The notes: generated by a model not told the origin, from the sequence alone. A stretch of DNA of 63,705 nt, filler included, from Fonticula-like sp. SCN 57-25 (GCA_001724245.1; 3 parts of 3 records of this genome joined end to end with filler, not necessarily neighbours in it), one strand, 5' to 3'. Positions 1 to 63,185 are shown, counted from the first letter of the whole stretch. Program-made: numbers and translations.

Positions 1-36
1 AACCTAAACAATTACCTAAAAGCTACTAGCACTAAC

Positions 37-477
37 CTAGAATGGATATACTTGCCGCAGATGGCAGCTACTAGAACATTCGCTTGCGCATCTCTGTTGA
101 TCCTTGTCAGCTATCGATGTGGAAGAATCTGATTGGTCGATGCAAACTGACAAATCTGTCAAATCAACTGGCGGCTGTCCTATAGCCCTACACGTCCAAG
201 GAATCTTAAGAGCCTCAGCTTCACAAACCTGCAATTAAGTCAGTTCGGGTCCAGGCACAGTAGACTGGAGATACTGTACGTACGTGAGCCTCGTCGAATT
301 CTGGTTTACCTCGATCTTTTTTTTTGCCAGCCGCCACGAATGTACCTAGCGGCAATCATCTTGCACTATGTCAGCCGCATCACATTAACGCAGTCCATTC
401 TCTCCTTCCGCTTCCAGGAAAGACCACGGGACAACCACTTTCACCAACGCGGCTTCCTACCCCATCGTGATCATCAT
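37..477 (-). pseudogene. Frameshifted paralog of the ubiquitin-like-header gene at 2266-2947
   Basis: The 5' part aligns with 2947-2710. A 1-nt indel after ATGATGATCACG gives an early TGA. The same intron follows the ...EFDEAH codons (gtacgt...actgac...ttgcag). The 3' end is approximate. Confidence 0.65.
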
Positions 478-1010
478 CGTAGGAGACACCTCACGCACGC
501 ACACGCGAAAGAAAAAACGGGCGGCAAAGCGCAGCATGGCAGATTGACATTAATTGCGTTTTCCCGCGCACTTTTTCCGGATAAGGGCAAACGGGTTGCG
601 CGTTCGAATCCCGCAAACGCACGGACACTTTTGATTGGCTGGCAAATCATCTTGACGAAATCGCATGCGATTTTTTGTCCGAGGACCTCTTTTCTTCGTG
701 TGCCCACAGCTCTGTCAAATAATTTTAAAACGCAAAACCCTTGATAGGGCCAAAAGTTCTCACGGTTCTCTATGTTCTGTGAACGTTTCAAGCAACGCGC
801 AGGTAATTTGGTGAAGCGCGGGGCGCCCAAACTTTAGGTGGACAGAACGCGGGCGTTAATCCTACGTGGCAGTGCAGTACCCGCATTCTCATGCTTTCTT
901 GTTACAATTCAATTTATTTGTTAAGCAGTTGGGTTGGTTATACTGCGCCCGTTGGTATGAATACAGGTTGAACATTACAAGCAAACAAAATTAATACACA
1001 ATTATCAATA

Positions 1011-1884
1011 TTAGCGATACGAGGAATTTAAAATATACGTGTAACAACAATGAAAACAAGGTTCCAAATTCATAAAGTCTTCTTCGTCATGTATCTCATC
1101 CGCAAAAAAACATCCTTTTTCCATATGAAAAAGACTCCCCTTTTTCGTCTTGTACCATATGATTGGCTTTTCGCTCTTCCGCGATTTCCTAGCTGTTCCT
1201 TCATCAACCACGCGTCGCTCCTCAGCACCCTCGGTAAACCCGTGGGGGGACAGGCGGGAGAAACACTGCGACTCAGAAAAAGAGAGCGCGTTGTATAGCC
1301 GAGCTCCACGTTTAGAGCGATGCACGAGGCCCGCTGGCGGCGCTGGGGAATCGCACAGCAGGGCAGGCCCAACCACGCGCGAAAACGGGGACGTCGTTCC
1401 ACTGACCGTCAAGTTATTACGAGCTACAGGTTCTGAAATCTGAAGACCTCTAAAGTTATGGAGAAGTGCCCTTTCTAGTGCGGCAGTTAGCAAGGGTTAC
1501 GTATGGTCCGTTATGGACGAAAAAGAACAGGTGCCGGCCGTACCCAACCTTTCCAAATCGTAGTAATCAACTTCGACCGACAATACACCGTCTTCGTCCA
1601 TGAGGTCCTGTAGCCACTTATCCCTAGTCAACTCCGAAAGAGAGCCGGGTTTCCTTACCTGAGGTCCAAAGGTCAGTTTTAAAGTGGCCAAGGTACTGTC
1701 AGTAGATGCGCACATGGAGGTAGTTTATGTCACACCTGCCATCCTCCCAGGTACTCGATATATGCTCGACAATGTCTTGTACTGCCGAATTAGCCGGAAA
1801 ATCCTTTACACCATCCTCTTTTGAAAGGTCGGGAAACGTCCACTGGACGCGGATCATCGTTGGTGTGCCAGTCGCCGGTGTCAT
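1011..1884 (-). CDS. Ubiquitin-like N-terminal domain + linker + C-terminal small Zn-finger (H-x4-C-x17-C-x2-C); 3 exons
   Basis: Introns 1659-1713 (phase 0) and 1475-1543 (phase 1) join three ORFs into one frame: IRVQWTF..GVKDF..SAVQDIVEHI..LH|VRKPG..ELTRDKWLQDL..GVLSVEV (beta-grasp pattern), then WYKTKKGSLFHMEKGC..LEPCFHCC. Confidence 0.75.
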
Positions 1885-2265
1885 ACGTCATACACGTCGG
1901 CTGATCAAAACTGGTAATCACCTGATTGGTCCTCGTGAAATTTACAAATTAGAAGAAATTGAGTCGTGCATCCTTGCACAACCCAAACGGACGAATAATA
2001 CTGTATGCCATAAACAAATTATGATAATGCGTATGAGCGCGTCACTTGTTTGGGGAGCTGGCGTCCAGTGAGCGTTACCTGTATGTTACCACTATGAGGC
2101 CATGGGCCGAGCGGGGCCTCCCGGAGGAAAGAGAAAAGCATAATTATATTTATTATCATGGATGAAAGAGCTGGTACACTCGTGGCAGCGTTGACCTGGG
2201 GAGTCTGGAAAAACGCTTAGGATCCAAAGGACCAGCGGCTTTCATTCCGCTCGTCCTTGAGACCC

Positions 2266-2947
2266 TTAGCGGTTCTCCAGTTGCTTCAGGTATAAGTCGC
2301 CCTTGCGCGACTTATACACCTCCACAACAACGCTGGCCACAGAGATTGCCAGGCTGAGGATGCCACCTGCAACCTGCCAACCAACGGCAACCTCAAAATA
2401 AAAAAAGAAAATCGCGAGAAGGTGCAGACCGGACCTGGTCAGCCCCAGCATCGCAAAGACAATTGGAAAGCCTTCCAAATGCCTTTGGACGCCGGCGAGC
2501 CACAGGGTCGGCGCCATCAGCCACACGCGGTAGCCGGGGAAAAGCGGGCCCTACTTTGAAGGTTAGTATGGTTACCTGGAAAGCAACAAAAAGGGTATCG
2601 CACCACACGGCAGACGTCAATGGAAAGCGCCACCTTTCCATCGTCGCCCACGAGGTTCTTGAGCGGAACCTGAAGCGGCAACTCGAAGCGAGCCCCGACT
2701 TCTCGAACCTACAATTCTAAAGTCAGATCCGGCTCTGGCACAGTGATCTGGAGATACGCACGTGAAACTCGTCAAACTCCGGTTTCTCTTGTTCAGCCGG
2801 CCAACCGACGCTACGGATGTACTTGATGACATCCTCCACCGTATCAGCGGCCTCAAACGCACGCTTACCATTACGTCCCCCTTCCGCAAAGGACCACGAG
2901 ACAGCCACTTTCACCAACGCGGCTTCCTGCCCCTCCGTGATCTTCAT
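2266..2947 (-). CDS. Ubiquitin-like N-terminal domain + C-terminal membrane-spanning region; 3 exons
   Basis: Introns 2709-2761 and 2551-2603 give MKITEGQEAALVKVAVSWSF..DTVEDVIKYI..EFH|VREVGARFELPLQVPLKNLVGDDGKVALSIDVCRV|GPLFPGYRVW.., followed by 2-3 hydrophobic segments. Confidence 0.72.
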
Positions 2948-3484
2948 CGTAGGAACACCTCACGCAAGCACACACGAAAGGCTGAAAGCAAAATGGCGGC
3001 AAAGCGTAATGCGGCAGATTGTCATTTATTGCGTTTTCCCGCGCACTTTTTACCGATTAGGGCAAACGGGTTGCGCGTCAAACGCACGGACACTTTTGAT
3101 TGGCTGGCAAATCATCTTGACGAAATCGCATGCGATTTTTCGTCCGAGGACCTCTTTTCTTCGTGTGCCCACAGCTCTATCAAATAATTTACAAACGCAA
3201 AACCCTTGATAGGGCCAAAAGTTCTCATGGTACTCTATGTCCTGTACACGTTTCAAGCAGCGCGCAGGTAACTTGGTGAAGCGCGGGGCGCTCAAACTTT
3301 AAGTGGAGGACGCTACGTGGAATTGCAGTACATTGTGCAGTACAATCGTGCAGTACCCGCATTCTCATGCTTTTTCGTTACAATTCCTCAATTTATTTGT
3401 TAAGCAGTTGGGTTGGTTATACTGCGCCCATTGGTATGAATGCACGTTGAACATTACAAGCAAACAAATACACATTTGTCGATA

Positions 3485-4333
3485 TTAACGATACGAAGAC
3501 GATAAAATATACCAATAACAACAACGAAGACAAGGTTTTAAATTCATAAAGTCTTCTTCGTCATGTATCTCATCTGCAAGATAACATCCCTTTTCCATAT
3601 GAAAGAGACCCCCCTTCTTCGTCTTGTACCATATGATCGGTTTTTCGCTCTTCCCCGCTTTCCTACTAGTTGTTCCTTCATCAGCCACGTTTCGCTCCTT
3701 ATGAGAACTCTCTGAAAACTCGTGGGGTGGCAGGCGAGAAAAACAATGTGACTCAGAAAATGGGAGCGCATAGTATTGCCGAGCTCCACGTCCAGAGCGG
3801 CGCACGAGACCCGCGGGCGGCGCTGGAGAATCATACTGTTGGGCAGGCCCAAGCATGCGAGACAACGGGGACGTCGTTCCACTGACCATCGGCCCCGGGT
3901 TGCTACGAGCTACAGGTTCAGAAATTTGAAGACCTCTAAAGTTATGGAAAAGTGCCCTTTCTAGTGTGTCAGTTAGCAAGGGTTACGTATGGACGAAAAA
4001 GATCAGGTGCCGGCCGTACCCAACCTTGCGAAGTCGTAGTAATCAACATCAAGCGACACTACCCCGTCGTCGTCCACGAGGTCCCGTAACAGTTTATTCC
4101 TACGCAACTCCGAGAGAGAACCGCGTTTTCTAACCTGAGGTCCAAAGGTCAGTTTTAAAGTCGCCAAGGTACTGTCAGTAGATGCGCACATGGAGGTAGT
4201 TTTTGTCACATCTGCCATCCTCCCAGGTGCTCGATAGATGCCTGAAAATGCAGTGTACTGCCGCGTCAGCCGGAAAATCCTTCACGCCGTCCTCTTTTGC
4301 AAGGTCGGGAAACGTCCAGTGGACGCGGATCAT
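3485..4333 (-). CDS. Paralog of 1011-1884: ubiquitin-like domain + Zn-finger
   Basis: Same two introns, open spliced frame MIRVHWTFPDLAKEDGVKDF..YLH|VRKRG..DFARL|ERALFHNF..WYKTKKGGLFHMEKGC..LKPCLRCC. Confidence 0.75.
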
Positions 4334-4382
4334 CGTTGGTGCGGTTACCAAAGTCGCCGTCGAGTTTTGACGAGCTACAGGT

Positions 4383-4839
4383 TTAGAAACCTCTCAAGTT
4401 CTGTACATGTGGCTTTTCTAGCGTGATAGTTAGCAAGGCTTATGAAAGGAGGAAAAGTCTAAAAAAGAACAGGTGCTGCGGTGCGGCGCTCCGGCGAGGT
4501 GCCGTACCCAACCTATCCAAATCGTAGTAATCAATTTCGAACGACAGAACACCGTCGTCGTCCACGAGGTCCCGTAGCCGCCTATTCCTAGTCAACTCCC
4601 AGAAAGAACCGGGTTTCCTGACCTGAGGTCCACCGGACCACCGTCCAATGGTCAGTTCCAAAGTGGTCGGCCGCGGTCGGTCAGTCGATGCGCACGTGAA
4701 GGTGTTTCATGTCACATCTGCCATCCTCCCAGAGGCTCGAAAGATGCTCGACAATATTATGCACCGACGCATTCGCCGGAAAATCCTTCTCGCCGTCCTT
4801 TCCCTCCCCTTTTGTGAACGTCCAGCGGACGCGGATCAT
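4383..4839 (-). CDS. Header-only ubiquitin-like paralog (about 97 aa), or the broken 5' half of a Ubl-Ubl-ZnF gene
   Basis: MIRVRWTFTKGEGKDGEKDF..HLH|VRKPG..DLDRL|EKPHVQNLRGF*. A small deletion relative to the paralogs creates a stop about 50 nt before the next header's ATG. Confidence 0.6.
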
Positions 4840-5120
4840 GTCACCATTGTTGGCGCATTCAAGAGGGTGCAGGATGGTGACTAGCCGAGCCAGCCACCTG
4901 ATTGGTCAATCCAATTTTACAAACTTTCAGCCTTCTATAAGACGATGCGGCGCGGTATTAAGCAGCAAATGAGCAGTTTGGCGAAGCGGATATGATATGT
5001 TTGTATATATTGGATAGTTTACAGTGTTACAAAGCAGAGAATGAGCAAAAAAGAAGCAAATAATGGCCGCTAAACTGAAAGATACATGAGCTAATACCAA
5101 GTCTTGAAAGAGCAAGAATG

Positions 5121-7313
5121 CTATTCAAAGGCTTGGCTCTCCATTGTGTTTGATCCGTTCCAATGCGCAACCCACGTGCCTTTAGCGCCGTCCACCTCCG
5201 CTCTCTTGGCGTGAATCAGTCGAATAAACTTTGATGCAGCCGACGCCGCTAGCTTCCTGTTACTTGCTTCCACGACTCGCAGCGGCAACAGCGAGCAGAG
5301 CGCCGCGCCATGCCAGCCAGCATTTGCAAGGGAGGCATATGCGCTACCCAAAGACTTGATCCATGCTGTAGTCTCGCCTACTGTCCATGACAAAACACTG
5401 TCTTTTGGAGGTTCAAATGCAGGGCCGTCCCCGAGCTTGTGCTGAGCAATATAGCCGCGAAGTTGCAGGGCGGCCGCGTCATTGTACGAGACGCCGCACT
5501 CCATCGCCTGATCGACATTAAAGAGCGTGAGTGATTCGCCGTCAACTTCCTCCAAATTCGAGATCAGCTTTCCCATTCCAATGTCAAAGAGCCATTCGCG
5601 GAATGTCTCGCCTTTCAGGTCGGCCAAACCGGTAACAGAGAGGCAATCCGTCAAGCTGTCAATTGACTGGGTGCACTCATGAATGATGCCCCGCAAAACT
5701 TCATGGCGCTCCATTAATTTGGAAAGGTTTTTGGTCTGTTCAACGTAGGCATTCGTTCGCAGCTTTTTGAGGTTTGCATTTTCGACCGCAACTATAAAAT
5801 GATTAGCTCTCAAGCATCGAGTATCGTTTCAAGCACGTACGCTTTGACTCGAGGTCCTTGATAGATGCCTTCAGCGCTACCTCGCGTTGCATCTCGTCGC
5901 GTAGCTTGCCATCCAGCGAGTCCAACCTGGGCTTGATATCGCCAGCTTCATTGAGCGCGTCCTCCAATCGCCCGCGAACGCTCGTGTATGAATTTGGCTT
6001 GTACGGCCGCGTTGTCCAATGGTCAATCTGGCCGTTATCAAGACCAACGAGGATGTTGCCCGAAAGTGCGTGGTAAGCGAGCGAGAATGGCTACAATCCA
6101 CCGTGTGAGCATCGCGTGGTAAGAAAGACGAAGGGTACCATTGCTGAGCATGGGTAGGTTGCAGTTTGCGCTCCGTCGCGAACGCGATATACAGCAAGAG
6201 TCGAGCTGTCAAACATTCCAACAACAATATGGGACTCGTCGCCAAGAAAGACAGCGCCAGTAAAGTCGCCGGTCTGTTGGACGGTCATGGTGGGAGAGGA
6301 AGGCCACGCTGTCCCATTGAGAGGGGCTTTCCAAATAGTGACGGTTTCGGCGCTTGTGACCACGAGCATGCGGCTCGAGGGGCTGAAGGAAATGCATTGG
6401 ATCTAGTCAAATAAGCAACTCAAATCGAAGGTGAAAAGCGCACTTTGGCAGAATGATTTTGGAGGCGAGCAAATAGAGTCCACTGTCCATTATTTGCTCT
6501 ATAAATAGAAGAATGTCCATTTTCGCACCCAGCAGCCAAGAAATGACCGTCCGGGGAAAAGGCGATGCTGCTCACCTAACAAGCACGTGAGGACAGGAGA
6601 CGCGGAGAGCAAAAAGCGTACATAATGCGGCAGCCCTGAAATTGTTTGGACGACAGCGAAATTCTTGCCAAGATCCAAAAGCGTCAATGATTGATCCGCC
6701 CCACCAATGGCGAGCACTCCATTCGGACTAAATGCAGCAGCATAAAGCTACAGAGATGGCAATTTCTTTAGCACGAGACAATAATGATTCTTGCCGCGCA
6801 CCTGTATCCCAGAGTGGTACGGCCTCGCATGCGTTTGCTTGTTTGATATTTGCTCGATGGTACCTTGGCCAGACACACCAATGGCGGTTTTCCCATCCGG
6901 CGACCAAGCGATACAATTCAACTAAAAGATCGTGTGTGAATTGAGGGCGAACACACAGATAGGCACAGCGCTCGCACAGCATAGTGGCATTGCGGGTTGT
7001 AAATAAATGCCTGAGAAGCGACATCAATGATGCCTAAAAAGCCGCTGCTGCTACCTGTGGCAACAAATTTTCCGTCAGGCGAGAGGGCAATGCAGGTGCC
7101 TTCCGCCGGTTGCTGGAGGCGTCGGGCCGGCGATACTCGTAAACCAACGCGCGCCTGGGCGGCGGCGGCCCGGAAGGAGGCGGCCCGTTTGGGCGCATGA
7201 TGATGCCCATATTGCGCCTGGTGTGCCTAGAAAAAACAGGTCAAAAACGTATGATAATAACTAATACATACATCACCATCAAAGGTCCCTTTTTTCGTCA
7301 GCGTGAACGCCAT
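5121..7313 (-). CDS. WD40 beta-propeller + coiled coil + two SAM-like domains; 8 exons
   Basis: Spliced WD motifs CIALSPDGKFVATGS, LNCIAWSPDG, LYAAAFSPNG, VSSIAFSPDGHFLAAG and IQCISFSPSS. SAM-like segments FREWLFDIGMG..EVDGESL and VLSWTVGETTAWIKSLG..GWHGAALCSL. Confidence 0.75.
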
Positions 7314-13162: not shown

Positions 13163-15620
13163 TCATGCAACGTAAATGTAAGTGGACGGGTCGTCCTTGT
13201 GGCGCTCGAGGTATTCGCGCTCGATAAGCGACTCGATGCGCTTCTTGAGGTCGGCCGGGCGCGCCGGGAAGCGCAGCAATGTGTAGAGCTCACTGAGCAG
13301 CTGCTCGTGCTTGAGCGACTTTCTCGTCTTCATGATGCGCACAATGGCCGCGTCGACCTGGTACTGACGATCGAGGAAGATCTTTTCCGTCGTGTCGTGC
13401 TGCTCCTCGGCCTGCAAAAAAATGTGAATAAACACAAAGAAAAAGAGGGCGCATGCGCACCGTTTCCTTGAACTGGACCTGGTTGACCTTGATGCGCATG
13501 AGCGTGTTGGTAAAGTCGGCGTTGTACGCAAACACGTCCTGGTCGGCGACCGACGGCACGCCGCTCGCGTCCTTTTTCGGCGACGACAGCGGCTTGAACA
13601 GCAACACGCGCACCTTGCCCACCGACAGGGAGAATAGCGTGCGGAGCAGCTCCTTATCATCTATGCACGCGGTTAGCCAAAAAAAGAGGCCCAAAAGGCG
13701 CCGTACCGATACTGAGGGCCGCCTTGATCTCGGCAAAGGTCATTGTGTCGCGGTCGTTGAAGAGAAGCAGGACGAGCGCCTGGAACTGCGACACGGAAAG
13801 CTCCTTCTTTCCTCTCCTAAAGCTTGCCTTGATGACGCACGTCCCGAGCGAGCTCTGGAAAGTGAGCCTGCGCCCGCCGTGCTTTGAGAGGTAAAACTGC
13901 GAAAACACCTCCTGGGCGGCGACCATGTCGGGCGGCAGGGCGACGTTGACCGGGAGGTACGTCGGCCAGAAGCCGGCGGTGAGGACGGTGACGTCGAGGT
14001 CGAACGCGCGGACGGCGCTCGCGTACTTTGCCTGCTCCTTGAAGGAGAGCATAATGTCCCGCGAGAGCTCGATGTCGCGGAACATTCCCTCGAGGTTGTT
14101 TGTAAACTGCGAGCCGCACTCGGCCTTGAGCTTGGAGAGCAGCACCTTTTCGAGGTCGGCCGACGCGCTCTTGGCCATGAGAAGCCGCTTGGCAAGGTCC
14201 TTTTTGTAAAACGCCTCAAACACATCCTTGCCGTGGATCGACCGGAAGAGCACAAGCGCGCGGTCGAGCAGCGACTCGAGCTCCTGCTCGCTCGACTCTT
14301 TGTTGCCCTGCCGAAGCTTGCCGTCCAAAAACTTTGCGATGAGCTCGGCGGGCTTGTTGGGGCGGATGTTTAAAAAGTACTCAAAGGCCTCCTGAATCAC
14401 GTGCGCAAAAGCCTCGCGCTTGCCAAACGCCGTGTCGGTGACGGTGTTAAGACGCTCCTTGAACGCAATGAGGTCCTCGACGAGCGTCGCGTCGCGCGAG
14501 GCGTCGCCGGCGAGCTCGGCGCCGCGCTTGCGCACATACGCCTTGAGGTGGTCACGAAGAACGTCCGTGCAGCCGACGCGCGAGAGGAGCGCGTGAAGAA
14601 CAGTAAGGTCAGACATGCGCGTGTCGTCCTGCACACGCGGTGAGCAAAAGACAAGATAAAGAAATGCGCACCATGAGCGACTCGAACGATTTTTCGAGCA
14701 GCGCGACGGCGTTCTGGGAAATGAGGCGCTCCTCGACGACGCGCAGCAGCTGCACGCGCGAGCTCGGGTTGAGGCAGAGGTTGACGCGGTCCGCCTCCTC
14801 GCGCAGCCGCTGCTCGCAGAGGGCGATGTAGGCCGAGCCGTCGAGCTCCACGATTGAGCGCTGGGCGAGCTCCTTGTAAAAGTCGCCCGTCGCGCTGAGC
14901 AGCTGGACCTCAAACTGGTCGTAGGTCTGCAGCGTTGTCATCATGGCGACGAGGTCCTTGATGGTCTGGCGGTCGACGGCCTCGCCGCGGCGCTCCTGCA
15001 GGATGAGCTGCAGGAGGCCGCCCGTGAGTGGCCGCTGGACGTCTGGCCGCGTGGCAATGATATTGCGGAAAAACGAGAGGCCAAGATCAAAGATGGGCGC
15101 GAGGCCGGGCGTGTGGAGCACATACGTGCGGTCGAGGTAGAGAAAGATTTGCCGGATGCTCTGCAGCTGGTCGATAAAAAGATTCCACTGGCGGAGCAAC
15201 ACGCCGAGAAACGACAGCTCGTCCGTCGTCGTCGCTACAAGCTGTTGGCATATATCCTTGACGTGCGATTCTAGCTCGAAATGAAGGCGCTCGTAGACGA
15301 TGGGGCCCTTGTCGAGGCGGCAAATGTCCTCGCACGCTGGGATCGAGTTAGAGAGACGGCGGCACAGCGAGCGGCGCACCCCGAAAGAGAGTCTGTGGGC
15401 TATTATCTACGGGCAATTGCTTGTGAATGGCGGTGACCGCCTGTTGAAGCTTGGCCCACGCAACATCAAAAAAGTTGTCATCCACGACGGGTTGGTCTTT
15501 AAAGCAGGGGATGAGCATCGAGGTTGGCGCCACGATCGTGGCCGCACCTTTAAAGGGAACGATAACAATGCGCTTGGGCTGCGCCGATCTTCCCGGTACG
15601 CTTCGTCCGTGTACCGACAT
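13163..15620 (-). CDS. CUL4: Cullin-4
   Basis: [56 protein letters not shown] and the neddylation motif [12 protein letters not shown]. Several short introns. Confidence 0.95.
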
Positions 15621-19753: not shown

Positions 19754-19836
19754 TGCTGGCCACCAAGGGTCGTATCACGTGATATCCAAAATTGCGCGCC
19801 GGTGGTCGGGTCAAGGCGTCGTGAGGGCCGGCCGGG

Positions 19837-22800
19837 ATGGCGACGACGGCGTCGACCGCGGAAGACGACTCTTCTGTGCGCGTGGCGCTGCGCATTCGCC
19901 CTCTTGTGGCGAAGGAGAAGAGCGACGGGTGCCAAGAGATTGCGCACCAGGTCGGGTCGCTGCCGCAGGTGAGCATCCGCGACAAGTCGTTTCAGTTTGA
20001 CTATGTTTTCGGGCAGCGGGCTGCTCAGGATCAGCTGTACACGACTTCTGTGCGGCCACTCGTTGACGCTTTTTTTGAGGGTTACAATGCTACGGTACTT
20101 GCCTACGGCCAGACCGGGTCGGGGAAGACGTTTACGATGGGGTCGGCGAACGAGGCCGCGCAGCCTACGGATGAGCTGCCTGCCGCGAGCGCACAGTCTG
20201 TCGGCGCGAGCAAAGGAGTCATCCCGCGCGCAGCGCTCGACATTTTTGAAAAGATGCGGGTGGCAAAGTCGCAGCGGGATGGCGATGGCGAGCCGCCATC
20301 GTTTGAGCTAAAGTACTCTTTCCTGGAACTCTACAATGAGGATCTCGTTGACCTGCTCAACCCGCGCAAGCGGGACGATCGCGAGCCGCTTCGCATGAGG
20401 GAAGCGCCACTAGGTGTTGAGCTGGTTGGAATAATAGAGGAGAGGGTATGCTCTTTATTTTCTTTTAGTTGCCGCGTTCTCACTTTGCGTGGCCAGATAG
20501 AGACAGCGGCCGAACTAGCGGCGTGCATCGCCTTTGGAACGCTTAACCGCACGACGGCAGCGACCGATATGAACGCCACGTCGTCACGATCGCATGCGAT
20601 TATTACTCTATTTTTGCGTCAGCGTCGGACTGTGCTGGTCCCAACCGGCGAGTCGTCCGACGGCGAGGAGTCGGCCGAGCCGCGCCGGCGTACCGAGGTC
20701 CTTTCGTCGCGCTTCCACTTTGTCGACCTCGCTGGCTCGGAGCGCCTTAAACGGACCAATGCCGTGGGCGAGCGCGCCAAGGAGGGAATCAATATTAATA
20801 TGGGCTTGCTCGCGCTGAGCCAGGTGATCAGCTGCCTCGGCGACGAGACCAAGCGCGGCGGGCACATTCCCTACCGGGACTCCAAGCTGACGCGGCTGCT
20901 GCAGAGCTCGCTCGGCGGCAACAACAAGACGCTCATGATTGCGTGCGCCAGCCCGGCTGACTCGAATTTTCTCGAGACCATGTCGACGCTGCAGTACGCC
21001 AACCGCGCGCGCAATATTAAGAACAAGGCGGTCGTCAATCAGGATATCGAGTCGCTCGAGCTGGACGATCTCCGGCGGGAGGTTCGCGAGCTCAGGCGGC
21101 AACTCCGGCGCAAGAGCGGCGGAGCCGGGTCAGATATGGAAGCGGCGGCCGAGCGTCAGCGGCTCGCCTTTTCCGTGTCGCAGCTTCAGGAGCAGCTCAA
21201 GTGCGCCACGGCAGAGATCGCACATCTCAAGGCATTGTCCGTTGGTCTGACGGGCAACCGAGACGAAGCAGTCGCAGGCCTTCTCGAGGACCAGCTTTCG
21301 CAGATCTCCACGCTCCAGTTTCAGCTTGCCGAGGCGCGGTCACGCCAGGCGGTCGCCCTGCCGCCAGGTTTGCCCGATTCGAGCGTCCAGCCTGCCACGC
21401 TGTCGGATGATGAACTGTCGGAAGCCGAGGAGGAAGAGGAAGAGGACGCGGACGACTCGCAGCTTGACCAGTCGTTTGGCGTCGACGATGATGGCGAATC
21501 TGACCGCAGCTCAGGCGACCAGAGTGCTGGCGCATCCCCTCTTTCCTCTGTTTCCCAAGATGGCGAGGATTCGGTGACGCGTCGTCTTGCCGCGCTGCAG
21601 GCAGCCATCACTGACAAGCAAGAGCTCATGGCCGAGCTTGAGGCGCGCGAGCATCAGCTCAACGAGCTTCGAGCGACCTTTGACGCGCGAATCAGCGAGC
21701 TGCTTCAAGAAAAGGTTCACCTGCTTCGCGCGCGCGATGACGCAATTGCTCGTGTCAAGATCGCCAAGGGCGCCGACCGCTCCCAACTCGAGGCGGCGCG
21801 CGAAAAGTATGAGCGCCAGATCAAGGCTCTGTCTGAGCAGATCGGCGCGCTCAAGGTGCAGGCGGCCGAGCAGGCGCGGCAGATGCGCGCGAAATCTATC
21901 CAGGACGGGCAGCTGTCGCAAATGCGGGCTGTCGTGGAAGATCTCAGGCGGCAGCGCCTCGATCTGCTGCGAAAGGTCCGCGAGGAGCAGCGGTCAATGC
22001 GCGCGGCCAAGCAGGAGATTGAGCGGGAGCTGAAGGTTCTACATGTCCGCGACGTGGCACGGTCGGCTCAGCTGCGGCGGCTCGAGCGCACGCATGAAGC
22101 GACGCGGGAGCAGCTTCGCCGCCGCCTTGAGGAGACGCGCGTCTATGCGAGGCAGAATTCTGATCGGCGGCAAGCTCCGTCCGCGCCCGTTTCCTTTAGC
22201 GCGCGTCGTACGGCCGATATTGATGCTCGGATGGAATCCAAGATGAACGTGATCCGGACCGAGACTGGGCGGGCCGCGTCGGCGCGCGAGCTCGAGCGGC
22301 TCCTGGACGACCTCGTTCGCCGGCGGGAGGAGCAGCTGGCAGGCCCAGCAGAGGCGTCTCGCGAGCAGCGCGTGTCGGGTCTTACTGTTCAGATGGCCGA
22401 GATCCAGGAAGCAATTGCGTCATCGGCGCCTGACATGTCGTCCGCATACAACAACGCGCTCGCGGCGCTCAATGGGCTCAGCTTGCAAGAGAGTCGCAAG
22501 TTGTTGCAGCTGTTTGTGGCGGAGCAGGTGTCGCTGAACGTGGCGCTGCGGCAGGCAGGACGGCGCGGAGGCATTACTATCGAGCCCGTCGCTTCTGCCG
22601 ATCGCACCAAGCCACCGCGTCCGCCGCTGGCAGGAGCGGCCGCTGCGTTGCCCGTCGTGAATGTGGAGCCGTTCCCGTCGACTGAGGCGGACGAAAAGGC
22701 GGCAGATCTGGCCTTGTTGACGGCGCCCATGACATCGCGATCCCGGTCGTCCAGCTTTACCGACGGCGTCTTTTCCCGTCTGACGTCTGCGCTTCCTTCT

Positions 22801-23835
22801 CCGTCGTCGTCTGCGGCGGCGCAGTTTGTTTCACGGGCTGCTCTCTCGAGCAAGGTGGGCGGCCCGCGGCGCGCGCTCGAGGTGGCCGGCACACTCTCTG
22901 GCCACTCGCACGCGGTGACGTCGGCCGTTTATATCGGCGATATTTTGGTTTCTGGCTCGCGCGATACGACTGTGCGCATTTGGGATTTATCACGAGGCGA
23001 GCCTGTCGCGACGCCGCTCGAGCACGATGGCCCCGTGCGTGCCCTTGCGTCACGGTCCACTATGCTCTTTGCGCTTCTCGACAATGGCATCTCTGTGTGG
23101 GACACGACCGCGCCGTGTCGGCAGCTCCGCACGATCCCGCTCGCATTTCATACCAAGCCGAGTGTGCTTCACGTCACGCCCGATGAGCGCTATCTTTTGG
23201 CGCCGACATCGACCGAGCCTGGCGTGCAGGTGTACGACCTGCGCATGCTATCGCCGCTGCGCACACTAAGGGGCCACTACCGGGATACGCCGCGCGGGTT
23301 TGCGTTTCTGCCGGGATTGCTCTTTACCGGGGCGCGCGACCGCCTCGTGCGCGCATACGATTTGCAGACGTTTGACCTTGTGGAGACCCTGCAGCCGCCC
23401 ATGCACGATCACCTGTTATGCATGTCTGCCGCTGGTGCGTTTTAGGTTTTGTCTCATATTTAACTGACATGTGGGCATGTGGGTGTTACAGATGGCCATG
23501 TCATTGTTGGAGGCGGCCACACGACGGGCTTCCTCAAACGCTGGGCCATCCCTAATGACTATCTATCGCGGCCAGCAGCGGGCGCGCCGATGAGCGTCAC
23601 GACCAAGGAGACGGTGAGCGCCCTGGCGAGCCCGTCATCTGCCCGCGGCTTGCTCCTTAGCGGCACACAAACGGGCGTGCTTCGGCTGTGGGATGCGCAG
23701 CGCATGGCGTCGTCGTGGGAGGCGGCGGCCAAGCACGAGGGACCTATCACAGGTATCGCTGAGCATTCCGAGAGGGCGCTGATCGCCACCGCATCGCAGG
23801 ACCGCACCCTTAAATTGTGGCGCTGGCGCGACTGA
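19837..23835 (+). CDS. KIF21: Kinesin-4 family motor with C-terminal WD40 repeats (KIF21-like)
   Basis: YGQTGSGKT, SSRSHA, FVDLAGSER and HIPYRDSKLTRLL motifs, a long coiled coil and WD40 repeats. Introns at about 20446-20496 and 23435-23490. Confidence 0.9.
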
Positions 23836-25687: not shown

Positions 25688-25787
25688 NNNNNNNNNNNNN
25701 NNNNNNNNNNNNNNNNNNNNNNNNNNNNNNNTTAATTAATTAANNNNNNNNNNNNNNNNNNNNNNNNNNNNNNNNNNNNNNNNNNNN
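25688..25787. other. Artificial contig linker N44-TTAATTAATTAA-N44
   Basis: Exactly 100 nt with a six-frame stop cassette; identical to 51289-51388. Confidence 0.97.
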
Positions 25788-61844: not shown

Positions 61845-63185
61845 TTAGTCGATCCATTTGAGCGAACCTACCAGCAGGGGCTGCTTGGGGATCCTACCGT
61901 TGACCGGAGCAAGGACGCTAATTCTGCTCTTTGCAATGTCCACCTCGTCAACAAAGAGAAATCCCTGCGACGGCGCCCCGATGAGTTCATCCGTGTTTGT
62001 AGTGGAGGAGACGCTGATGACGCGATGCAAAAGGTCGGCCGACGGCGTGAGGGGGAGGCACTTTGTCTCGTCAATCTTCCTTGTCTTTCCAATGGGCAGC
62101 GCAGTGGATGGTGCGACATTCGCTTGCCCGTTGTGGAAGAGGCTCAAGTCCGAAAATGGGATCGTCGCGCGTCGGGGGTAGAGCTCGCCGTCTCGCCCAT
62201 AAAAGTAGGCGCGAATGCTCCCATTCCGCTGCTGCTTCCTAAAGCGCGAATCACGGTTCACACTGCCTCCGCTGCGCGTGAGCCTGATAATATTGACCGG
62301 CGGCGACTGCTGCTGCGGGTCCGACCCTTGGGAGTTTTGAAAATCGCGCTGCAGTTCACTGTGAAGGCGCTCGTCGCCGAGTACGAGGATCGTGTCCACC
62401 TGAAATGCGTGCACCGCATGGACAATGGCTTGATAGCCAATGCCCTCCGTGAAACCGCACGTGTTGATGATCACGCCGCTCGCCTGCGCGTCAGCATCCA
62501 CGTCGAGCTTGCCCACCACCTGGCGCGCGAGCGACGACAACAGCGTCATGTACAGCTTGGAGTTTTCAGACGGCGAAGTGTGGCCATAGTAGTACACTAG
62601 AGGCACAAGAGAGTCGTAGGCCGTCTGTGCGTCAAGCAGGCGCTCGACCGTGGCCGCGCAGAGCGTGCCAGGGATGCTGATCGAGCCAACCCCAACGTCA
62701 AGATCAACGTAAGTGACGCGACGACCGTGACGAAAAGCGTAATTGAGAAGAATGCGGCAGCAGCTCGACTTGCCAACGTCCATGGGACCTACAACGAGCA
62801 CGCGGGGACCACGCGAGCCCGACGCTGCAGCCTGCGTCCTCAGACCTTCCAGGGCCAGATGCAGGTTTAGATACAGCGCCATCTGAGTGTCCTCGGCAAC
62901 GTAGACATGAAGACAGTCCCCGGCCACAGAGAGCGTGCACCCATGATACGTAAATATTGACTGCTTGCACATAGAGAAGCTGTACTCCACACCCAGCGCA
63001 AGTTCCGCGCCAAAAAGTTCGCCAAGGCCGGAAACGAGTGTGATCTTCACCGGACTTTCTCCGACCTCAAAACGAAGTTCCTGCCCCGACTCTAACGTGT
63101 ATTCAATCTTTTTGGGCTCCTATCATGCGGTACCCACGTTAGTATTGGGAAAATGCAGGCGGAGGCGACGCACCGCTGACGACAT
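61845..63185 (-). CDS. CLP1: Clp1 polynucleotide 5'-kinase / cleavage factor
   Basis: ELRFEV, ELFGAEL, IFTYHGC, Walker A GPMDVGKS, DLDVGVG, PLVYYYG and INTCG. One intron near the start. Confidence 0.95.

Follow-up and report, generated by a model that had tools for sequence, protein, structure and literature searches.

A lineage-restricted array of minus-strand genes with a probable ubiquitin-like header and two tail architectures

At the left end of the window, by which we mean the whole stretch of 63,705 bases that was analysed, tblastn and a header profile locate five copies of a header-encoding sequence, all on the minus strand at 210-4839 (Table 1). A sixth was found neither by tblastn across the 63.7-kb window nor by a profile built from the four spliced headers and run against its 2040 six-frame ORFs, in which eight exons matched at E<=8e-12, two weak fragments of copy A followed and the rest were not below E=2.7. 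An earlier reading made from the sequence alone (hereafter the sequence-only reading) had described five co-oriented genes; the five copies and their common strand stand, but only B, C and D are complete with tails, E amounts to a header only, and A, as that reading had also recognised, is a pseudogene, broken by three in-frame stops and a frameshift. Plus-strand ORFs at 151-744, 2747-3187 and 2766-3209, lying over A/C and the spacer, were considered as genes and set aside, their frame not being kept between the duplicates. A search of positions 1-6000 against Rfam returned a single sub-threshold lncRNA match (E=0.34), and no ncRNA accounts for the conserved introns and spacer. The composition of the locus is distinct, at 48-51% GC, and the host is a eukaryote without a close sequenced relative, the nearest named relatives of its CLP1 being 38-43% identical. 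A CCAAT-type 10-mer that we infer to be a promoter element occurs exactly three times in the 63,705-base window; D lacks the upstream copy that B and E possess, so its expression is uncertain.

Table 1. Features of the array, in coordinates of the window
Feature	Position	Strand	Description
Copy A	210..477	-	pseudogene, 5' fragment of a C-type gene
Copy A exon-1 remnant	284-477	-	from sequence reading
Copy A intron	229-283	-	55 nt, GTACGT..CAG; then ~19 nt of exon 2, where similarity to C stops
Gene B	1011..1857	-	type I, 240 aa, single open frame when spliced in silico
Gene B exons	1714-1857, 1544-1658, 1011-1474	-	exon 3 = Cys/His tail
Gene B intron 1	1659-1713	-	55 nt, GTGCGC..CAG
Gene B intron 2	1475-1543	-	69 nt, GTACGG..TAG, phase 1
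Gene C	2266..2947	-	type II, 191 aa, single open frame when spliced in silico
Gene C exons	2762-2947, 2604-2708, 2266-2550	-	exon 3 = hydrophobic tail
Gene C intron 1	2709-2761	-	53 nt, GTGCGT..TAG
Gene C intron 2	2551-2603	-	53 nt, GTGCGA..TAG, phase 0, donor inferred
Gene D	3485..4333	-	type I, 244 aa, single open frame when spliced in silico
Gene D exons	4190-4333, 4020-4134, 3485-3960	-	spliced model
Gene D introns	4135-4189 (55 nt), 3961-4019 (59 nt)	-	spliced model
Copy E	4383..4839	-	partial type-I duplicate, 97 aa, header frame intact
Copy E exons	4696-4839, 4508-4622, exon-3 remnant 4383-4417	-	spliced model
Copy E introns	4623-4695 (73 nt), 4418-4507 (90 nt)	-	spliced model
A/B spacer	478..1010	.	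duplicated as 2948-3484 between C and D
CCAAT-type 10-mer GACCAATCAG (gene sense)	1922..1931	-	65-74 nt upstream of B ATG
Further copies of 10-mer GACCAATCAG	4898-4907; 129-138		59-68 nt upstream of E ATG; beside A

A predicted phase-0 GT..AG intron follows a conserved His codon in all five copies (55, 55, 55, 53 and 73 nt), just as had been proposed. The companion claim, that the four intact copies share a second intron at the header end, survives in part: such an intron does lie near the domain end in both gene types, but its position and phase differ, being phase 1 in B, D and E and phase 0 in C. A hydrophobic tail in C requires the phase-0 GTGCGA donor (a 53-nt intron); a GTAACC donor just upstream was rejected, as it would leave a 25-nt intron and a non-hydrophobic frame where all other introns here span 47-95 nt. 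The splice signals, namely GT[AG]CG donors, a CT[AG]AC branch motif and a YAG acceptor, are the same as those of ELP3 in the same window, two of whose introns (67 and 47 nt) are pinned down by unbroken alignment with solved Elp3 chains, a further ELP3 stretch at 39926-39976 being excluded from the comparison as not resolvable as an intron.

Exon 1 measures exactly 144 nt and exon 2 exactly 115 nt in each of B, D and E, and the introns of the same three vary in length (55/55/73 nt for intron 1, 69/59/90 nt for intron 2). Coding indels between B and D (6, 3 and 3 nt) are all multiples of three; the non-coding ones are 10, 5, 3, 11, 10, 6 and 1 nt. Three copies have kept their frames through exons 1 and 2 despite 13-27% nucleotide divergence, with changes commonest at the third codon position (19, 27 and 26, the first and second positions having 8-19), and the comparison of paralogs suggested by the sequence-only reading gives a dN/dS of 0.32-0.38 in the header and 0.36 in the tail, or 0.37 for B against D. 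In every one of the eight header exons and in the C tail, which has no paralog to compare it with, the model frame is the only one whose codon log-odds exceed zero (in the C tail, +0.41 per codon for the hydrophobic frame, -0.59 and -0.47 for the other two); the values for the B and D tails lie near zero (+0.007 and -0.116). The constancy of exon length, the in-frame indels, the codon bias and the dN/dS together favour a coding reading of the predicted spliced models. The copies might instead be duplicates in decay and without function, or non-coding sequence wrongly modelled as genes, as the dead A, the shortened E, the indifferent codon scores of the B/D tail, the want of homologs found outside the organism and the better conservation of introns and spacer than of exons would suggest; yet frames maintained through such divergence, coding indels held to multiples of three, the low dN/dS, the excess of third-position changes and positive scores in every header exon make this very unlikely.

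The history of the array can be read from its own repeats. By blastn, 210-1865 matches 2690-4341 at 81.8% over 1698 columns, with the similarity of A to C beginning at 210/2690: a type II 5' end, the spacer and a type I gene were duplicated together as a 1.7-kb segment, and on this alignment D is a duplicate of B. The two spacer copies are identical at 458 of 517 aligned ungapped sites, identity being 90-98% in most 50-nt windows, and each should carry the promoter and 5' UTR of the C-type gene and the 3' UTR of the B/D-type gene. Similarity of E to B and D ends ~25-40 nt upstream of the D ATG. The array would have grown by the copying of the 1.7-kb segment and by an older partial duplication of the type-I 5' half, events that would have left behind A, the dead remnant of a type-II gene, and E, a gene reduced to its header. 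The birth-and-death turnover envisaged beforehand is seen in the segmental duplication, the two partial copies and the pseudogene.

The evolutionary side of the locus is its more interesting one: after a recent duplication the exons show ~5 times more change per site than the introns, a figure drawn from the single paralog pair B/D. Since the split, copy-specific changes have affected 36 of 259 sites in exons and 3 of 114 in introns (p=0.0007), and B and D are identical at 614/723 exon sites against 110/114 intron sites (p=0.0003). Synonymous sites are raised as well (dS 0.36), and the copies group differently in exon 1 and in exon 2. An excess of exon over intron change is generally associated with gene families in an arms race, or with conversion from a larger family. 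On one alternative reading this would be a fast-evolving conflict locus (for example immunity, toxin-antidote or drive-like), with a membrane and a soluble protein as a pair and exons diversified by an arms race or by conversion from a larger unseen family. Both measures of exon excess, the discordant grouping of the two exons, the duplication of type II and type I as a unit and the distinct composition would all suit it, as would the precedent of venom multigene families, which in the parts of one account bearing on them combine conserved introns with divergent exons (PMC2711939). The likeness to venom-type families ends with exons diverging beyond introns and flanks after duplication (PMC2711939): dN/dS here is ~0.35 where theirs is at least 1, a secretion signal and a toxin fold are absent, and one paralog pair only is involved. 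A dN/dS well below 1, an elevated dS that selection on the protein does not explain, the failure to find any toxin-like or immunity-like domain, and small counts at a single locus leave the conflict reading little chance. We give as slim a prospect to a broader conjecture, in which a new ubiquitin-like family of a deep-branching eukaryote belongs to a larger unseen set, its exons renewed several-fold faster than its introns through patchwise conversion or targeted accelerated evolution, and forms a conflict-type pair of membrane and soluble proteins (immunity, toxin-antidote or drive) unrelated to Crinklers.

The header itself is about 86-97 aa long. Headers of B-type and C-type are identical at 25-28 of 82 residues and give local scores of 88-116, where shuffled sequences average 24 (sd 4.4) and none of 2000 shuffles reaches the observed value; on these scores the two are related. 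AlphaFold2, applied to an exon-1 alignment and therefore modelling exon 1 alone (residues 1-48 of the 86 in the B header), places strands at 2-6 and 16-20 and a helix at 26-35 with a mean pLDDT of 78.1. A Foldseek comparison of this model with the PDB, one of the checks suggested at the outset, gave 0 matches at E<=0.001; a ubiquitin-like module is named in the title of 31 of the best 50 structural rows, usually with the N-terminal part of the module covered. Among Pfam families, PF13881 matches exon 1 of E (E=0.024, residues 2-40 on profile 3-40) and of C (E=0.17, residues 16-55 on profile 5-43), at 12.4-15.2 bits for these single-exon peptides and so under its 23-bit cut-off, and it is the only family matched by two header copies, which are 30% identical and align in the same register. 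UBX reaches E=0.23 on exon 1 of C (12.1 bits, cut-off 21). Ubiquitin-family Pfam matches were absent for B/D exon 1 and for the four exon-2 peptides, and no curated ubiquitin-family profile matched the single-exon peptides significantly (best 15.2 bits against a cut-off of 23).

Sequence searches of the PDB with exon-1 and exon-2 profiles and with the last 59 tail residues returned chance-level matches only (E 0.2-1.6), and exon-1 and exon-2 peptides folded as two chains scored an ipSAE of 0.02 in both runs, a value that weighs neither for nor against the packing of the two halves. The beta-grasp has the topology beta-beta-alpha-beta-beta-(helix)-beta, its helix packed over a mixed sheet, and the alignment of exon 2, with a hydrophobic pattern and, after an invariant Asp-Gly, an alternating strand, is one that we take to be compatible with strands 3-5 of that fold. 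The header could also adopt some other small strand-strand-helix fold, its ubiquitin-like matches reflecting a common supersecondary unit only; the preponderance of ubiquitin-like titles among the best rows, the agreement of two divergent headers on one ubiquitin-fold family in one register, and the exon-2 pattern as we read it render this unlikely. The sequence-only reading was right that a C-terminal GG is lacking: it occurs in 0 of 4 proteins, the headers lie at the N-terminus and finish with ..RL or ..RV, and the header is thus not a conjugatable modifier. Hydropathy maxima over 10 residues are modest within residues 1-35 (0.43-1.62, from a crude hydropathy check that is not a signal-peptide predictor). 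From the model and these matches, the header is most likely a ubiquitin-like (beta-grasp), non-conjugatable docking module.

Behind the header, tail type follows header subtype exactly in all copies of the window, B and D having Cys/His tails of 153-157 aa and C a hydrophobic tail of 94 aa. Four kinds of tail had been counted, and these reduce to two real ones and two truncations at duplication breakpoints (E and A); the supposedly all but missing tail of E is really the start of a B/D-type tail, an exon-3 remnant that runs for 11 residues past the split junction codon before it meets a stop. As for the zinc finger assigned to two copies, the conserved spacing of Cys and His between B and D is confirmed, with H116, C121, C139, C142 and C143 invariant, together with C70, H77 and H128, and the C-terminal cluster of type I, spaced H-x4-C ... 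C-x2-C-C, may bind zinc; the finger itself finds no match in Pfam, NCBIfam or the PDB and no confident model, AlphaFold2 leaving the B/D tail mostly unstructured at very low confidence (pLDDT 39.8). Pfam holds no family for the tails at E<=1 and none for the last 49 residues at E<=10, NCBIfam 0 families for five peptides at E<=1, and the ESM Atlas no usable match for the B tail. The C tail exceeds 1.4 in Kyte-Doolittle windows of 19 residues over residues 125-178 and is read as a putative membrane anchor; the ESM Atlas leads for it, all <0.9 and to small phage or bacterial membrane proteins including holin families, were not relied on.

No relatives were found outside the organism's own contigs, either in protein sets or in metagenome contigs. 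The exon-1 profile drew five matches from 1.84 billion representative proteins, two of them the locus's own ORFs and the other three repetitive proteins hit through many weak repeats and judged spurious; B exon 1 had no homolog among longer proteins, a homolog search with the B tail recovered the locus's own ORF only, and the two loci seen in metagenome contigs correspond to window positions 568-2273 at 100% and 4148-5367 at 99.7%. These searches bear on the central proposal of the sequence-only reading, a Crinkler-like design in which the header recombines at the second intron with interchangeable C-termini to yield a modular family of effectors or defence proteins. Crinkler (CRN) and CR-RHS proteins do resemble the present ones in a probable ubiquitin-like N-terminal header joined to differing C-termini and in multiple copies with turnover. 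According to the portions of a published account drawn on here, LxLFLAK is the CR header motif, CR headers without it exist in other eukaryotes, the tails are enzymatic toxin domains and CRN N-termini are ~130 aa (PMC5289972), against about 86-97 aa in this family. A plausibly ubiquitin-like header, a tandem array with turnover, an intron near the domain end in both types, exons that diverge faster than introns and that latitude in the CR header motif would all accommodate the proposal.

Against it, 0 of 4 spliced proteins match L.LFLAK, a relaxed LFLAK-like pattern, HVLV..P or HV[LIV]V, the want of an LxLFLAK/HVLV motif having been remarked by the earlier reading itself; the DWL domain, HVLVxxP, an enzymatic toxin tail and tail shuffling are likewise absent. 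The tails carry no Pfam or NCBIfam domain where those of CR proteins are enzymatic toxins (PMC5289972, in the same portions), the two extra tails are breakpoint truncations, the phase of the second intron differs between types, and no further members were found in the 1.84 billion representative proteins or in the metagenome contigs. Each header subtype has its own tail type without exception, so nothing points to recombination at the second intron, and no header joined to recombining tails was found in this window or in public protein sets. The swappable-tail design is therefore not upheld, a Crinkler/RHS-like modular family is highly improbable, and an effector or defence role is speculation; as it stands, the locus is a small lineage-specific family and not a new effector system.

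We lean, with slightly more confidence than doubt, towards the reading that the left 4.9 kb of the window encodes small proteins, probably intracellular, of a lineage-restricted family with two architectures, whose shared header is most likely a non-conjugatable ubiquitin-like docking module. Type I (B and D) would consist of the header, ~100 residues for which the model is of very low confidence, and a C-terminal Cys/His cluster, and type II (C) of the header followed by the 94-aa hydrophobic tail as a membrane anchor. By analogy, the header would recruit a partner able to recognise ubiquitin folds. For type II the recruitment would take place at a membrane, as it does when MUB/UBL3, held there by a prenyl group, recruits E2 enzymes; for type I it would take place at whatever site the Cys/His tail binds. 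Should the fold be borne out, this is an orphan ubiquitin-like family with two simple architectures, from a eukaryotic lineage without a close sequenced relative.

MUB/UBL3 (PF13881, Rad60-SLD_2) joins a Ub-fold to a membrane anchor, binds E2s and bears a C-terminal CAAX prenylation box, as given in parts of PMC10511055. It is alike in being a small, non-conjugated ubiquitin fold at a membrane whose Pfam family is matched by two of the headers, although at the sub-threshold scores given above; it differs in its prenyl group, in place of which type II has putative hydrophobic helices and type I no anchor at all, and a CAAX box occurs in 0 of 4 proteins here, which end in SSYR, LENR, SSYR and LRGF. 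HERP, TMUB1 and Dsc3 are integral ubiquitin-like domain proteins with membrane segments. Sequence similarity to proteins of this kind was not detected in the searches made here, and by architecture alone they offer a likeness to type II, hydrophobic segments coming after a ubiquitin-like domain at the N-terminus.

The header, a shared N-terminal domain, occurs in five minus-strand copies at 210-4839 (A to E, left to right), as the sequence-only reading had proposed, and these are all the matches that tblastn with exon peptides found in the 63.7-kb window; scanning its 2040 six-frame ORFs with a profile built from the four spliced headers returned the same copies alone. B and D are type I (Cys/His tail), E is a partial type-I copy, C is type II (hydrophobic tail) and A is a type-II fragment whose stops and frameshift bear out its description as a pseudogene. 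Each spliced model has one open frame with one terminal stop.

Header genes and neighbouring features (B, D, E and C as coordinate-built spliced models)
Feature	Position	Strand	Details
A	210-477	-	three in-frame stops, one frameshift
B	exon 1 1714-1857; exon 2 1544-1658; exon 3 1011-1474	-	240 aa; introns 55 and 69 nt
C	exon 1 2762-2947; exon 2 2604-2708; exon 3 2266-2550	-	191 aa; introns 53 and 53 nt
D	exon 1 4190-4333; exon 2 4020-4134; exon 3 3485-3960	-	244 aa; introns 55 and 59 nt
E	exon 1 4696-4839; exon 2 4508-4622; exon 3 4383-4417	-	97 aa; introns 73 and 90 nt
Cullin	13660-14937	-	
KIF21-like kinesin with WD40 repeats	19825-23442	+	single 1206-codon ORF
Kexin-like subtilase with P domain	53183-54823	+	
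tRNA-Lys	61568-61641	+	one gene
CLP1	61848-63119	-	

The reality of genes and introns was judged from comparative evidence, using B, D, E and C together with ELP3, another gene of the window. In B, D and E exon 1 is always 144 nt and exon 2 always 115 nt while intron lengths vary, and the open frames depend on splicing because introns of 55, 59, 73 and 53 nt are not multiples of three, an argument that does not extend to those of 69 and 90 nt. Indels between B and D measure 6, 3 and 3 nt within coding sequence and 10, 5, 3, 11, 10, 6 and 1 nt in non-coding sequence, and header pairs have dN/dS values of 0.38, 0.32 and 0.37, the B-D tail 0.36. In a codon log-odds score whose training set was six conserved genes from the window, each of the eight header exons and the C tail is positive in its model frame and in no other, whereas the tails of B and D score about zero. 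Donors (GTGCGC and GTACGG three times each; GTGCGT, GTACGT and GTGCGA once each) and YAG acceptors, each with a nearby CTGAC or CTAAC motif, match the signals of ELP3, whose 67- and 47-nt introns, fixed by contiguous alignment of adjacent ORFs to solved Elp3 chains, both read GTACGA..CTGAC..YAG; two further ELP3 introns (95 and 47 nt) were read off the sequence. For intron 2 of C, the phase-0 GTGCGA is the sole donor that leads to the hydrophobic frame, with an intron of 53 nt; GTAACC, which would make a 25-nt intron and a different frame, was rejected. ELP3 also carries a 51-nt in-frame stretch (39926-39976, minus strand) between Cys 2 and Cys 3 of its radical-SAM motif, with no frame-keeping GT..AG boundaries, which could represent either an atypical intron or a genuine 17-residue insertion.

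That the header is shared was upheld: type-I and type-II headers are homologous, with 25-28 of 82 aligned residues identical, local scores of 88-116 where shuffled sequences average 24 (sd 4.4; the observed score was reached by 0 of 2000 shuffles), and a first intron placed after one and the same invariant His in each of A-E. The proposed beta-grasp fold fared less clearly in tests on single-exon peptides, and we hold it to be the likelier case by a modest margin. An exon-1 AlphaFold2 model from the four-sequence alignment (mean pLDDT 78.1) has strands at 2-6 and 16-20 and a helix at 26-35, and PF13881 (ubiquitin fold of the MUB/UBL3 type) is matched below threshold at the same profile positions by exon 1 of E (E=0.024) and of C (E=0.17); against this, Foldseek of the model found no PDB match at E<=0.001. 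UBX was matched at E=0.23, and exon 1 of B and D and all exon-2 peptides gave no ubiquitin-type Pfam match. The header is N-terminal and, as had been noted, ends without Gly-Gly; neither a CAAX box nor a Crinkler motif occurs in any of the four proteins (B, C, D, E), and residues 1-35 reach only modest hydropathy maxima (0.43-1.62 in 10-residue windows, a crude check rather than a signal-peptide prediction).

The tails were said to be interchangeable, and here the earlier interpretation fails. Self-blastn aligns 210-1865 with 2690-4341 (1698 columns, 81.8%), and the match of E to B and D, at 70-72%, spans the header plus roughly 90 nt at the start of the tail. A single segment, in which a spacer links the 5' end of a type-II gene to a complete type-I gene, was duplicated; A, whose similarity to C ends about 19 nt into exon 2, is the type-II fragment within the copy, and E an older, partial type-I copy. 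The tail of E, read as essentially nothing, consists of the first part of the B/D tail (28/35 and 34/35 nt identical), stopped after 11 residues, and similarity breaks off just upstream of D's ATG. The duplication analysis of A and E therefore reduces four different tails to two real ones, each staying with its own header subtype, and two truncations, with no sign of tail exchange at the second intron among A-E. That intron is present in B, D, E and C as claimed; it is not one common boundary, its phase being 1 for type I and 0 for type II. An open frame upstream of D's ATG (4334-4393, minus strand, in ORF 4175-4393) prolongs the tail frame of the E remnant; lacking E's stop, or with another acceptor, E and D could form one two-header protein. 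The 10-mer GACCAATCAG (gene sense) occurs just three times in 63.7 kb: at 1922-1931 and 4898-4907, 59-74 nt upstream of the B and E ATGs, and at 129-138, in A's left flank with no header after it; it is absent before D.

The B/D tail keeps H116, C121, C139, C142 and C143, as well as C70, H77 and H128, which is what survives of its reading as a zinc finger; as it has no relative in Pfam, NCBIfam, PDB or Atlas and its model has a pLDDT of 39.8, that name is a guess from residue spacing. The C tail has 19-residue windows of hydropathy >1.4 spanning residues 125-178, with weak Atlas leads to small membrane proteins.

The single feature here meriting follow-up is an excess of exon over intron change. 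B and D are identical at 110/114 intron and 614/723 exon sites (Fisher p=0.0003), and at 568/631 of all non-coding sites (p=0.005); polarised by E, changes private to B or D fall at 36/259 exon and 3/114 intron sites (p=0.0007), whereas the older E branch shows no such excess (exons 34/259, introns 21/114). Protein selection alone is insufficient, since synonymous divergence (dS 0.36) also far exceeds intron divergence. Exon 1 supports grouping B with D (28 sites versus 7 and 9) and exon 2 does not (6 versus 13 and 7). Exon patches may have been converted from unseen paralogs, the introns and spacer may have been homogenised, or the exons may have undergone venom-style accelerated evolution, as described in PMC2711939.

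The array lies at the edge of the window, where base composition is distinct: GC is 48-51% over 1-6000 and mostly 53-66% elsewhere (two dips, 47.5% and 49.6%). The first 40 bases contain degenerate CCTAA-like repeats with no clean telomere, and four 44-N blocks lie in two pairs at 25688-25787 and 51289-51388. The other tabulated genes are housekeeping neighbours. The adjoining gene (5121-5828, minus strand), with sub-threshold SAM-domain matches (E=0.018 and 0.12), is unrelated to the header family. Word-based searches returned nothing apart from the locus's own ORF; a profile run against 1.84 billion representatives gave five matches, two own-locus ORFs and three repetitive proteins judged spurious, and a metagenome scan gave two contigs, both the same locus. 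Host CLP1 is 38-43% identical to its closest named homologs (insects, green algae, kickxellalean fungi), a sign that its eukaryotic lineage may be poorly sampled, so this dearth of relatives is weak evidence.

The family is thus real, small and lineage-restricted, with a probably ubiquitin-like head and two architectures in an array grown through ordinary segmental duplication. Crinklers, according to PMC5289972, have a ~130-aa N-terminus with LxLFLAK, a DWL domain ending HVLVxxP, enzymatic toxin tails and headers ubiquitin-like by later prediction. Of these defining features, none that can be tested is seen in the array proteins, and tails are bound to header subtype, so a Crinkler-like design with swappable tails is not supported. 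By analogy alone, the header would be a docking module, held at a membrane in type II and, in type I, joined to a Cys/His tail. Type II was not filed with MUB/UBL3, its match being below the Pfam cut-off. As PMC10511055 describes them, MUB/UBL3 proteins join a CAAX anchor to a ubiquitin fold and bind E2 enzymes in plants; type II would share a similar logic with a different type of anchor.
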